DNA from: Eledone cirrhosa
Lineage: Eukaryota
Reading direction: 5' to 3'
NCBI GenBank assembly: GCA_964016885.1
Contig: CAXHJY010001068.1
Span: forward strand, 1-64,000
DNA: 64,000 bases
Part shown: positions 21,519 to 61,233 of the stretch, piece by piece
How positions within the stretch are numbered: position 1 is the first letter of the stretch
Layout: each line of letters starts with the position of its first letter
Program-made: the position numbers and the translations under genes
The notes under the pieces: model-generated
Database searches by the model: none
Seen by the model: the letters and a program-made list of their open reading frames with translations, nothing else
What the model was told of the DNA's origin: nothing

Positions 21519-21707
21519 AACGAAGGAAAGGAACCAGGTGGACCATAGCGCATCAGAGTACTCAATACTTTGGGTAGTAGAGTGGGTAATAGGAAAAGAC
21601 TCAGGACCCCGACGGCAGAGCTCAAGCCGTTTCGACGGCTATTTCTGGAGTCCAGAAATAGCCGTCGAAACGGCTTGAGCTCTGCCGTCTGGGTCCTGAC
21701 TCTTTTC
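21519..21707 (-). mobile_element. HHR-type mini-element family A, fold-back copy
   Basis: 57-bp inverted arms 21593-21707 around a 1-nt axis (21650). Each arm holds the HHR 3' half GAAA-CGGC..GAGCTC..GCCG-TC. (TA)n on both sides; a further partial copy lies at 21394-21487. Confidence 0.85.
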
Positions 21708-22439
21708 ATATATATATATATATATATATATATATATATATATATATATATATATGTAACACACAAAATCAAGTAACTAGTGTTGTGTTCATTTTAAAAC
21801 CAATAAAATGTTGGAAGCGGTTAAACAAGTTTACAGATTATAGATAATAGCTTTTTAAATATAGATAGTTGAAATATATATATTTACTAATAGTTCCGTT
21901 TGAAATGTAAATAATTTCGACTAGAATTTGCGATAATTCCATCTTGAATCACGATAATTATATTAAGAATGGAAATAATTTCAATGTATATATATAGAGA
22001 GAGACATTTTTATTTGAAATTTATATTTGTTTTAAAAAGCTAAATATTTTCATTAGATAGATAATCGTTTAATAAAAAAAAAAGATAATTGTTCAATAAA
22101 TGTAGATAATTTCTTTTAAAATATAAATATATCTCTTTTAAGAAATATATTTAATTTATTTTATGACAATAATTAACTTTTCACGTAGATGATTCTATTT
22201 ATTTCTTTAAAATAATATGATATATTCGTTGAAAACTATAATAAAATAATGATTTTTTTTGATTTTTTTTTTCTTACTTGACAACGTTACGTCCATATGT
22301 CTATATATGTTTGGCAATTCTTAATATCACTGCTTACGTAAATTACTAACACACATGAACACATTCATATATATGACCAAAGAGGACCTTAAAATATATC
22401 TATATATATATATATATATATATATATATATATATATAA

Positions 22440-22750
22440 AGGTCCCCTTCGGTCACGAATGACCATTGTTTGTGCACCTAGAAAGTTCCGAGGCACTAGA
22501 CTGAGCAAGGTTATTTGTGGAAGACCAGCCGTCACCCATGTATACCAGACTCCCCTCTCCATGCCACCAATGTTGTCCAAGGGAAAGGCAATGGCCGATA
22601 CAGCTTGGCACCAATGACGTCGCAACTCATTTCTACAGCTGAGTAAACTGGAACCACGCGAAATAAAGTGTCTTGCTCAAGACCACAACGCACCTCCCGG
22701 TCCGGGAATTGAACTCACAACATTACGATTGTGAATTCAAAGCCAAGCGT
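22440..22750 (-). mobile_element. tRNA-derived SINE family 2
   Basis: Minus-strand B box gagttcaattcc followed by ttgagcaagacactttatttc..ctcagctgtagaaatgag. Homologous to 36495-36625 and 55640-55862; tail fragment at 42685-42750. Confidence 0.85.
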
Positions 22751-22769
22751 CTTCATATATATATATATA

Positions 22770-22945
22770 GAAAAGAGTCAGGAGCCCGACCATACAGGTG
22801 GCTTAGTTGGGATCTAGCTGTCAAAACGGCCGGAGCTCAGCCGTCGGGGTACTGACTCTTTTCCTATTACCCACTCTACTACTCTAAGTATCGGGTATCC
22901 TGGTGCGTTATGGCCCACCTGGTTTATTACCACAATTTCTTTGTG
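22770..22945 (+). mobile_element. HHR-type mini-element family A (+ strand, with short inverted 5' piece)
   Basis: gatctagctgtcaaaacggccggagctcagccgtcgggg...ttcctattacccactctactact..; flanked by TA/TG repeats. Confidence 0.85.
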
Positions 22946-22975
22946 TGTGTGTGCGCGCGTATATATATATATATA

Positions 22976-23162
22976 TGACGTCTGAGAGAAAAGAGTACTC
23001 AATACCGAAGTAAAGTGTTAATATTCAATATTATTAAGGCTAAAACGCGAGTTTCGCCTCTTTATCAGACTCATCAGACAAGAATTCTTGTCTGACGAGC
23101 CTGTGATAAACTGGCGAAACTCCAGAGTAACAAGAATCACTGTTTAGCTTTAATAATATTGA
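22976..23162. mobile_element. HHR-type mini-element family B, head-to-head inverted pair
   Basis: Axis at gaattc (23082-23087). The + arm is an intact HHR; the - arm has CTGATGA..GGCGAAACTC followed by a deletion. Confidence 0.85.
23084..23137 (+). ncRNA. complete type I hammerhead ribozyme (family B)
   Basis: Helix I AUUCUUGU/ACAAGAAU (8 bp); core CUGACGA (23092-23098); helix II GCCUGU/ACUGGC; GAAA (23116-23119); helix III ACUC/GAGU; predicted GUA cleavage after 23129. Confidence 0.88.
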
Positions 23163-23374
23163 ATGTGTGTGTGTGTGTGTGTGTGTGTGTGTGTGTGTGT
23201 GTGTGTGTGTGTGTGCGTGCGTGCGTGCGTTTGATGTGTGTGTGTGTGTGTGCGTGCGTGTGTGTGATGTGTGTGGTGTGCGTGTGTGTGTGTGTGGTGT
23301 GCGTGTGTGTGTGTGTGAATATAACCGTTAAGGTATTTTTCTTGGTTATGTCAAAATTTATAAAACACACTTCG

Positions 23375-23435
23375 TATTTTATCTGATGAAAGCGTACCAA
23401 AGTTTTGGTACCCTTGAAATATATATAATAGAATA
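23375..23435 (+). ncRNA. complete type I hammerhead ribozyme (family C)
   Basis: Helix I UAUUUUAU/AUAGAAUA; CUGAUGA (23383-23389); helix II AAG-C-GUACCAA/UUGGUAC-C-CUU; GAAA; palindromic AUAUAUAU helix III; predicted AUA cleavage after 23427. Confidence 0.85.
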
Positions 23436-58649: not shown

Positions 58650-58840
58650 CAGGAACAGAGACACACACAAACACAGGGCCACACACACAGAGGAACAGAT
58701 TCACACAGACACAGGGCCACACACACAGAGGAACAGATTCACACACAAACACAGGGCCACACACACAGAGGAACAGATTCACACAGACACAGGGCCACAC
58801 AGACACACACACAGGAACAGATTCACACAGACACACACAC
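58650..58840 (+). repeat. ~40-bp tandem repeat, ~4.5 copies
   Basis: Unit acacagggccacacacacagaggaacagattcacaca(g/c)a. Confidence 0.9.
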
Positions 58841-59230
58841 AGTGTCGTGTTTATTTCAGCATAACTTCAATGGAACAAATTTTCTAAATGTGGTCATTGC
58901 TAAAAGAGTTATATGTGTGTATGTGTGTGTGTGTTTTAATAAAGGGTTCCGCATGGCTAAAATCATACACAATTTAATAAAAATATGGCCGAAGATAACA
59001 GAAAAACATACGAAACAGATTGTTTGTCTTTTTTAGACTTCACGTCCAAAAAAGACAAAACGAGGAGAGAGAGAGAGAGAGAGAGTGAGAAAGAGTGAGA
59101 GAGAGAGAAAGAAAAGAAAAGAGAAAGAGAGTAAGTGAGAAAAGAAAACGGTAGGTGGTGTAAAATAAAACAGTTTAAAAAAGGTGACCCGCGGGGCTAA
59201 AATCATACAAAATGAAGAAAATATATGTTT

Positions 59231-59335
59231 CCTCAGGCGGGCTGCTCTCTTTCCGATTTTCCGGAGGAAATCGACAGTGTGGGACCAAGGACACCAGAGG
59301 TCTCGACGGTGACCGGTAGGGAACAAGTACATTCT
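59231..59335 (-). mobile_element. CRE-like RLE retrotransposon fragment
   Basis: Frameshifted YLF.PVTVETSGVLGP..VDFLRKIGKRAARLR, matching the F.P...ET.G..G motif of RLE domains. Confidence 0.75.
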
Positions 59336-59619
59336 CCAAGAAAGCATCGTTCACATTGCAACCCTTCGAAACCGTTCATCAGCACTTGAACTAACTACGA
59401 ACAATGTCATTTCTTTGTTAAGAAGAGTGTAATCTATAGGAGATTTAGCTGCTATTTCTGTTAATCTAAGTAACCTGGTAGAGGTTGATAAAATTAGGTA
59501 CCGCAGTACGTTCCGGGCGTGTATCTTCCACTACTAACTTACCCTCCGGTTAGGCATGGCTTATAAAAGCACTTTAGACAGTACTATAAGTTACAGAAAG
59601 GGTTAAATAATCATATTGA

Positions 59620-59850
59620 GGGCCTCCCCACAACCCCGGCGGACAGAATGGAGAAGTTGTTTCTCCGGACGATGGTAAGGGAGATGCGATGGAAGAGCAA
59701 TTCCAACTCGCGAGGCTCACACCTGCGGCTGGCCAGCTCAGCGCCTATGGTGGTGAGCAGGGAGGTAGCCCTAGGGCCGGGCCGAGGACGCCAGAAGTCT
59801 CCACTGCCAGGGGTACGACCGCAAACCTGTCGGAGAGCGACTATCGTGTC
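59620..59850 (+). repeat. GC-rich dispersed repeat, copy 3 (longest)
   Basis: Shared with 27315-27450 and 16680-16780. Confidence 0.85.
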
Positions 59851-60981
59851 ATTAATTTAGTAGGCTGTGTCTTACAAAGAATAGTTGGCTTTGCGCCTGG
59901 GCAAAAGAAATCCTCATTATGTTTTAGCTGAATCCTTTGACCCCCACCCGGCATCAGCGGGATGAAATGTACGGAAGACCTATGTAGTTACAATCACTTC
60001 ACATCACTTCACATCACTAGTGGACGTACTGACCAGAGGCCAGTGAATAAAAACAGCTCCGCCCACATTGGTTTCGGCGTGGTTAATAATCTATACAAAA
60101 TGTCGAAGATAGATTGAGAGTTTCTTTTTCTATTAACCTTTGACCAAAGGTATGTGAGAGATTACCAGAAATAACACGGACAAAGACAAGAAAAAAAAGC
60201 TACGACAGGAGGAAGACAAAGTTGTTACTTGTATTGTTGTTGGTGGTGTTTAGCAGCAGGTCAGCTCTGTTCGAGTAGCCCTATGGTCAAACAGGCTTCA
60301 CCCTTGATCATATTTTTAGGCAGAGTGTATATACATTAAGGTCTTTATTGATTATAGATAGCAGCGACTGTTTCACAGATGGGTGGTTCAAGATCTATAT
60401 TAATGCTATAGAACCGACTCCAGCTCGATCTGCTCTTCAGACTTGTTAAACAAACAAAACCAAAATCTCATTTATAGATGGCTTTGTGCTGGAAGAAGGC
60501 AGTTATAATAAAGAGTCCATTACTAGAATAGAAGTCTAATAAGGCCTCGCCTTAGATTGGGATCGACGATTCTTCCAAACGCCTTTCAATTTAAGTATTT
60601 CTGCTGTAAACAAACATTGCTGTAATATATATATATATATATATAATATTAACAATATTAATAAATGTAAAATATCTTTATAATACCATATTTATTTTAT
60701 CTATGTAAATATATTTTCCATTTATTAATATTAATAATGCTCCAGATAAATGCTGTAGAGTGCTTCAAATCTGTTATAAAATTAACTTTGTTGAATGATA
60801 ATCAACAAACCATATAACTCATTGTTTATATATATATATATATATATATATATATATACACACACTATATTTATAAAACCATATTTATTTCATTATACAT
60901 ATTTCAAGGGCCACCAAGGCAAATTATGGTTGCATTTTTTCAGGGTATGTCAATATTTATTTATAAAACTAACCTATATTA

Positions 60982-61047
60982 TATTTTATCTGATGAAAGC
61001 GCACCATAATTTGCCTTGGGGGCCCTTGAAATATGTATAATGAAATA
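60982..61047 (+). ncRNA. complete type I hammerhead ribozyme (family C) inside inverted-repeat element 60864-61180
   Basis: Helix I UAUUUUAU/AUGAAAUA; CUGAUGA (60990-60996); helix II AAG../..CUU; GAAA (61028-61031); AUAUGUAU helix III; predicted cleavage after 61039. Inverted arm at 60864-60930. Confidence 0.83.
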
Positions 61048-61233
61048 AATATGGTTTTATAAATATAGTTTCCATTTGTTAATATATTGTATATTTACTC
61101 CAATAATTTGTTGAGTGCTTTATATCAGTTATAAAAATATTTTGCTTGTTGTATCCCAACAAATTAAATATAACCTCTACATATATATATATATATATAC
61201 AAGAAAACCCACAAACCTTCCATCTTAATTCTA

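Follow-up and report, generated by a model that had tools for sequence, protein, structure and literature searches.

A bulged hairpin doubled at the ends of Hydra-clade Penelope-like retroelements as a candidate signal for the start of reverse transcription

The DNA analysed here, a stretch of 64,000 nucleotides (nt) of the Eledone cirrhosa genome (assembly GCA_964016885.1, contig CAXHJY010001068.1, positions 1 to 64,000, forward strand; hereafter the window), carries the ends of several families of mobile elements, in which a 12-nt motif recurs. It represents one strand, the 3' arm, of a bulged hairpin that is conserved. The hairpin lies in the tails of Hydra-clade Penelope-like elements (PLEs), where it is probably an RNA element bound by the element's own reverse transcriptase (RT) to set the position at which copying starts; we infer this function, RT binding and priming alike, from the hairpin, its covariation, its second copy and the positions of the insertion ends. 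The doubled RNA signal is apparently undescribed, within a known clade of retroelements of which the elements themselves are ordinary members.

A preliminary description of the window had placed the motif at 11 sites. The 12-mer or a near variant is indeed present at all 11, exact at five and displaced by 1-2 nt from the stated position at two (14711-14722 and 21231-21242), and further copies occur at 42296, 22888 and 60753. When up to two mismatches are allowed, the window holds 19 copies against 16.7 +/- 4.1 by chance, that is, no excess; genome-wide (3.0 Gb) the exact 12-mer has 65,308 copies against 238 for the reversed control, and most of the first 30 genome copies are followed by a (TA)n run after about 45 nt. 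The signal is not linear: the conserved unit is the hairpin, of which the named motif is one arm. A lower stem of 4 bp (5' arm RCUC, 3' arm GAGY) is separated on the 3' side by a bulge of 2 nt from an upper stem of 1-6 pairs with a free loop, and the hairpin is followed by a triplet that is mostly RCU. In 600 kb of arbitrary genome sequence this fold was found at 38 of 223 anchor sites, compared with 12 of 158 in the reversed sequence, and the loci collected from the genome (loci are designated by L numbers) yielded 159 hairpins in 25 tail clusters, three of them chance-like.

Maintenance of the pairing is seen in an outside set of 92 loci of Hydra-type relatives, taken from metagenome contigs and contigs of metagenome-assembled genomes, several of them from common assemblies; these loci are presumably DNA of host animals. 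Fifteen loci with Hydra-type retroelements (L298-L312) derive from bacterial genome bins and are probably host-animal contamination. Strict hairpins occurred 39 times in the sense orientation against 6 times in antisense, 4 times in reversed and once in complemented sequence, and they follow 21 of the 57 ribozymes in these loci. For the covariation test, anchors were chosen blind to pairing in 46 non-redundant outside tails. The anchor is present in 30 of these, twice in 16 of them, as opposed to 734 of 13,800 shuffles (5.3%), and 9 of the 16 anchor-less tails run into (TA)n within 75 nt. An exact complementary arm lies upstream of 41 of 46 anchors, as against 1 and 13 in the controls. When the bulge is set to 2 nt, upper pairs 1, 2 and 3 hold in 41/41, 30/40 and 25/30 cases, whereas other bulge lengths give pairing in 21/82, 20/82, 18/78 and 26/70; the letters of the first upper pair in the 41 outside hairpins are C-G in 24, U-A in 16 and U-G in one. 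Likewise, the lower stem covaries, its base being A-U or G-C and its third pair being swapped in L299, L302 and hairpin 2 of the D1 subfamily, covariation being understood throughout as pair counts and not as a tree-aware measure.

Several of the families that carry the hairpin can be traced to coding elements. Longer copies of family A, the tandem units of which repeat at ~3,540 bp, extend upstream into an open reading frame (ORF) for an RT and a GIY-YIG endonuclease, present in L381; the D1 subfamily, of which the D copies in the window are sisters as judged by eye, is tied to its own RT-endonuclease ORF in three loci, including L452; and C2, traced with a query from the window, is tied to ORF fragments in L440. 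For family B no ORF link was found. A, C2 and D1 are the ends of coding elements and not tandem non-coding monomers of 170-400 nt. In A (L381), D1 (L452) and the L314 and L443 families a single ORF encodes the RT and, at its C-terminal end, a GIY-YIG endonuclease, and all four ORFs have DKT in place of DKG, the CxCX5C linker and the late CxxC. CxH is present in three, the D1 locus ending before that position, and RWR, a conservative variant, stands at the N-terminal RWK position (in A and L314 by pattern, in D1 and L443 by eye). The four ORFs are 43-53% identical to one another and 34-41% identical to the outside relatives. In the tree, 15 rows, none of them a named reference Hydra sequence, group at 100/100 apart from Neptune-type elements and two other ORFs; one row, ext_L226, was a wrong ORF (a Neptune-like neighbour) and the source of the '2 changes', and was disregarded. 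The elements also show insertion into (TA)n, inverted truncated copies and a tail at one end. Several units exceed ~3 kb, the 3' untranslated region (UTR) of D1 measuring 2.1-3.4 kb; a length below ~3 kb is described in the text of Craig et al. (2021, PMC8557442) as 'generally' found, so that it is not diagnostic.

Given the ORF links, the marks of the Hydra clade and the grouping in the tree, the A, C and D-subfamily sequences are, as judged by sequence, the 3' ends of PLEs related by descent, with UTRs that can no longer be aligned. The preliminary description had called the families unrelated, which does not hold; its observation of dissimilar flanks does, since in a self-BLAST of the window the A, B, C and D tails are mutually unalignable and copies join only within a family. 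It had also supposed that alignment of the families throughout would reduce the motif to simple common ancestry: the tails fail to align, yet the ancestry is shared, and from the two together it follows that the hairpin has been kept by descent under selection and is not a feature common to unrelated elements. That all linked families form one clade would suit a neutral relic of common ancestry. However, this explanation is already contradicted by compensatory changes that keep the pairing where flanks are unalignable and proteins only 34-53% identical, and we give it almost no credence. Among other candidates, terminal repeats of DNA transposons and microRNA precursors were rejected for the palindromes, which are inverted PLE ends; tRNA-type promoter boxes were rejected as a reading of the motif, and so was a likeness to a homeodomain site, which leaves the pairing unexplained. 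A GIY-YIG search of the genome returned mostly Neptune-type elements, which are without the motif, and a search of viral contigs found no relatives of the elements.

The positions at which insertions end provide the second line of evidence. Insertions stop either just before hairpin 1 (tail-less ends) or 36-85 nt past its 3' arm (tailed ends). A second hairpin just beyond the tailed end of full-length copies was predicted from doubled hairpins in the outside loci and then found in four families. Family A has it in 358 genome matches, with none in the control, and 98 of 100 listed matches show a 6-nt spacer; the L314 family has it at 6 of 15 loci, the L443 family at one locus and D1 at 17 of 30 loci, the D1 form consisting of the lower stem only, without bulge or usual triplet. 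The pattern search for the second hairpin of D had itself given four chance matches, D1 being settled afterwards through its ORF. Contigs of two sequencing runs left hairpin 2 uncovered and held too few differences to interpret. For end mapping, 2.0 Mb of loci contributed 4,431 (TA)n junctions, which were placed on references. Of 259 ends of the A, L314, L443 and D1 families, 245 have a hairpin arm 3-12 nt to their 3' side; of 82 TA dinucleotides in the references, only 18 lie in those windows. The spacers measure 8 and 6 nt in A, 9 or 5 and 6 nt in the L314 family, and 6 and 9 nt in D1; the tail-less ends of B, C2, E and F fit too, mostly at 4-9 nt. All eight head-to-head pairs contained within a single fetched stretch consist of one tailed and one tail-less arm. 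In D2 and B (L196-L220; window 35766-35857 and 23049-23122) most inversion junctions coincide with the 5' strand of stem I of the ribozyme, and the resulting mini-elements are nearly uniform; this suggests stalling of the RT, or annealing of two complementary DNAs (cDNAs), at this self-complementary stem.

If genomic ends are taken as start sites, as in Frangieh et al. (2024, PMC11167929, in the text available), each start has a hairpin a few bases to its 3' side. The RT-endonuclease protein would bind the hairpin on the uncut transcript, nick a (TA)n target and, a few bases to the 5' side of that hairpin, prime cDNA from the nick, and the hairpin used would stay uncopied because the cDNA starts 5' of it. 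A start at hairpin 1 would yield a tail-less end, and a start at hairpin 2 an end bearing hairpin 1, that is, the 'tail' with the motif inside. Two subunits, one for each hairpin and target strand, would produce head-to-head pairs with one arm tailed and the other tail-less. More tentatively, with chances somewhat below even, the doubled hairpin may be the docking site of a dimeric telomerase-related RT, each subunit of which would hold one hairpin and copy from 5-9 nt upstream on one cut (TA)n strand, with the two cDNAs joining head to head. Should this be so, twin-priming would rely on a start signal that can be moved and lies outside the RNA that is copied, and the Penelope tail would be accounted for.

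The same distances could arise by cutting. GIY-YIG enzymes such as I-TevI cut at a distance, and the endonuclease might bind the hairpin in single-stranded cDNA or DNA, cut 5-9 nt away and so trim a longer copy to two ends. The set distance to the ends suits such a nuclease, the 3' arm with its triplet is nearly palindromic, and a perfect stem can fold on either strand; in addition, the endonuclease of D. virilis Penelope needed the tail for recognition, according to earlier work cited in PMC11167929. On the other hand, the text of that study places RT starts, not trimming, at genomic ends, covariation excludes plain recognition of double-stranded sequence, and the UUCG-type loops of three families together with G-U pairs seem, as indirect signs, to suit RNA. 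We regard trimming as rather unlikely. A further alternative is that the hairpin binds a protein for packaging or translation control and that ends adjoin it only since the RT can start on RNA that is open and rich in A/U on the 5' side of any stable fold. In its favour, hairpin 2 precedes the ATG in the A, D1, L314 and L443 families, by 20-65 nt, and the spacer is A/U-rich and in most families opens with a short match to (TA)n. However, other TA sites of the same stretch are almost never used, the main tail-less end of D1 has only a 1-nt match to its target, and the hairpin is weak as a mere barrier, all of which makes this account improbable.

The proposal that the hairpin sets the start of reverse transcription has itself to be set against a number of observations that tell in the opposite direction. 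The hairpin is absent from 14 of the 26 hammerhead families of this genome, although these too are inserted into (TA)n; at least three of the 14 had short copies only, and family A escaped the 26-family filter. It was likewise absent from all six non-Hydra elements with a ribozyme-like end in which it was sought, although they also insert into (TA)n (a seventh, L053, was left out because no ribozyme was found there). The pattern search gave no match for a second hairpin of family B, and the tailed end of D1 is equally sharp despite its degenerate hairpin 2. The spacer is not constant, being mostly 5-9 nt, with a peak at 13 nt in D2 and eight D1 ends at 12-17 nt. The loci used for the end counts were enriched by the searches themselves, and the de-duplication of outside tails favoured the anchor-bearing copy. 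Predicted hairpin energies are weak (-3.6 to -4.4 kcal/mol), the minimum free energy (MFE) fold lacks the upper stem in D and fails to form any of the hairpin in decayed copies of B, and the triplet deviates in the L314 and L443 families. Finally, the in vitro support comes from another clade, Poseidon, and not from Hydra; the 'AC-rich stem loop' in the text of PMC11167929 is a Poseidon-clade feature.

How the hairpin relates to the ribozyme bears on two other roles suggested for the motif in the preliminary description, those of an internal promoter and of a distal tertiary contact of the hammerhead. There the motif had been put 40-70 nt downstream of the ribozyme, which is correct within the window; across the 12 hammerhead families of this genome that possess the hairpin, the offset from the cut site is 42-119 nt. 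Upstream in cis, a full hammerhead core stands at only four of the 11 sites (22994, 21231, 37901 and 61109): the three A copies then listed have the 3' half alone, an inverted copy replacing the 5' half, and at 14711, 30821, 33396 and 35734 there is no core within 140 nt. An internal promoter, a DNA site for a host factor or a ribozyme contact would suit the sequence conservation of the 3' arm and its place downstream of the ribozyme, which in 27 of 30 outside tails is at 53-77 nt. Nevertheless, the wider range of offsets in this genome argues against a contact, a second hairpin lies ~55-90 nt beyond the first, and an internal promoter is not favoured, since the upper stem is conserved in its pairing rather than in sequence; moreover, the hairpin is retained where the ribozyme core departs from consensus, and its position follows the insertion ends. 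Either role appears very improbable. The remaining suggestion, an RT or endonuclease recognition site, is the best reading, with the amendment that the signal is structural, formed by pairing, that a full-length element has two copies of it, and that its position is tied to the insertion ends and not to the ribozyme.

The ribozymes themselves vary. B, C and D have canonical hammerhead cores near the 3' end. A double change at U3-A8, a swap that may keep the hammerhead active, characterises full-length family A (L373, - strand) and the 3' UTRs of three Neptune-type families (L051, L057, L068), and consensus ribozyme searches overlook such cores. The very abundant and young L314 family (L132-L154 and L314; 150 of 150 scored matches at >=97% identity) shows the U4A change in its core, and its cut site is probably UU; both hairpins persist, whereas the ribozyme may have lost its activity. 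A Neptune-type family (L054, L058, L066, L118) has two ends, ~120 and ~180 nt past the ribozyme, without this hairpin, and may use another twin signal. At L061:7068-9600 lies a retrozyme-like array of six tandem units of ~490 bp, in every one of which a hammerhead and a (TA)n run are present and this hairpin is absent. In Rfam, the two hairpins of L373 gave no match at E<=10, and L237 gave a weak hammerhead and a chance match only.

The features of the window are collected in Table 1.

Table 1. Hairpins, ribozymes and inverted junctions, by position in the window
Feature	Position	Strand	Remarks
Hairpin 1, family A	21557..21583	-	Arms at 21583 (5') and 21563 (3'); bulged hairpin in the MFE fold; named motif comprises 3' arm, bulge and the triplet that follows
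Inverted junction of the same family A insertion	21589..21711	.	Hammerhead 3' half both ways, 21634(-) and 21666(+); + arm tail-less; self-BLAST palindrome 94%
Hairpin 1, family A	23580..23606	-	(TA)n begins 52 nt past 3' arm; inverted arm 23612-23722
Hairpin 1, family A	37348..37374	-	Inverted arm 37380-37543
Hairpin 1, family A, newly listed	42296..42322	-	Inverted arm 42328-42448
Decayed hairpin 1, fifth family A copy	22873..22899	+	Self-BLAST and hairpin search
Hairpin 1, family B	22994..23016	-	5' arm with one change; UUCG-type loop; intact form in L163-L190
Family B hammerheads, head to head	23038..23135	.	Cores 23077(-) and 23092(+); palindrome 23049-23122
Decayed family B hairpin	14711..14733	-	5' arm intact, 3' arm altered
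Decayed family B hairpin	21231..21253	-	Near-variant motif
Hairpin 1, family D	37891..37912	+	Follows full hammerhead (core 37839); MFE fold is lower stem only; inverted arm 37766-37891
Hairpin 1, family D2	35734..35755	-	Palindrome 35766-35857
Hairpin 1, relative of family C	30822..30850	-	Imperfect upper stem; no ribozyme core in cis
Type I hammerhead, family C2	60990..61044	+	Ribozyme search
Hairpin 1, family C2	61097..61119	+	Upper stem unlike A, B and D yet paired; family tied to Hydra-type ORF in L440
Hairpin of another C-like family, newly listed	60739..60764	+	Lower stem closed by a G-U pair
'Orphan'	33385..33407	+	Upper stem and 3' arm retained; 5' arm lost to (TA)n run; tail like that of an A-related family

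The tail of the 'orphan' resembles, by eye, that of L337, which has an intact hairpin. At 20541-20560 (- strand) a variant of the motif may represent a decayed hairpin, with a microsatellite 54 nt further. In 21190-23860, 37270-37990 and 60700-61200 copies from different families sit end to end, nested within common (TA)n runs, each insertion leaving new (TA)n targets. Elsewhere, an abundant repeat of ~190 bp, similar to short interspersed elements (SINEs), occupies about 20 places (for example 9451-9652, 18224-18448 and 38553-38976), and a near-perfect array of 60-bp tandem repeats at 31786-32815 lies within an open frame of 456 codons. An Rfam scan of the window gave microsatellite noise alone among the best 150 of 713 rows.

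Penelope-like RTs are the sister group of telomerase, so that an RNA boundary element here would bear on the origin of RNA recognition by telomerase. Concerning the choice of start site in PLEs and their tail at one end, the one in vitro study placed the signal only within 172 nt. A structure of 25 nt, found from elements of coral and sea cucumber to those of this genome and at a set distance from both ends, makes the question of start sites testable with few mutants. An uncopied signal that lets an RT start at an internal position of an RNA could serve RT-based genome writing, and the hairpin could mark Hydra-clade ends in the annotation of repeats.

Small, often bulged RNA structures thought to dock an RT, or to fix where copying starts or stops, include the 3' UTR stem-loops of long interspersed elements (LINEs), SINEs and R2, hepadnaviral epsilon and the template-boundary element of telomerase. 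The stem-loops of LINEs and R2 sit 5' of the start and are copied, and the bulge of epsilon templates a primer, whereas the hairpin described here lies 3' of the start, would stay uncopied and is doubled.

The closest relatives are the C-terminal endonuclease-bearing PLEs of the Hydra clade, for which the text of PMC8557442 describes DKT, CxCX5C, a hammerhead near the 3' end and (TA)n targets. Shared with the elements here are also the RT with C-terminal GIY-YIG, the inverted 5'-truncated copies and the tail at one end, the one-sided tail being already described there. The tails differ in length, ~65-100 nt here against 30-40, as do several units here of more than 3 kb. The word 'hairpin' occurs nowhere in the main text of that paper, the ribozyme table of which ends 20 nt past stem I. 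By eye, the hairpin can be recognised in three of the six Hydra consensus sequences that have been published (Hydra-2_Amil, Hydra-2_Ajap and, twice and at the 5' end, Hydra-1_Ajap), these three coming from a coral and a sea cucumber; Hydra-1_Crog has a variant, and Hydra-1_Amil and Hydra-1_Obim have no clear hairpin. Non-LTR retrozymes (PMC7229834; bioRxiv 10.64898/2026.07.22.740005) have in common with these elements the type I hammerhead and a Penelope-like link, and the short copies of B and D2 are of similar size; however, retrozymes are tandem non-coding monomers of 170-400 nt with circular RNA, whereas the copies here are truncated inverted ends, and neither text, as far as available, contains 'hairpin' or 'stem-loop'. 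No description of the hairpin was found in the open text, figures and Repbase notes aside, of the literature searched, including PMC8557442, PMC4209133, PMC7229834 and the 2026 retrozyme preprint.

A further parallel is Poseidon_Ac, the RT of which, according to the text of PMC11167929, starts cDNA in vitro at two internal RNA sites that equal the genomic ends and bound the tail. The RNA around these starts is required and ribozyme cleavage is not, the uncut RNA being the substrate, and the Poseidon-clade protein, a predicted dimer, nicks AT-rich DNA on both strands. The binding motif was narrowed only to the 172 nt mentioned above, with no conserved repeated structure defined in that text. 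Poseidon_Ac belongs to another clade, and its signal lies in the ORF, while that of the elements described here lies in the 5' UTR; nevertheless, the two have in common a pair of tail-bounding starts downstream of the ribozyme and AT-rich targets.

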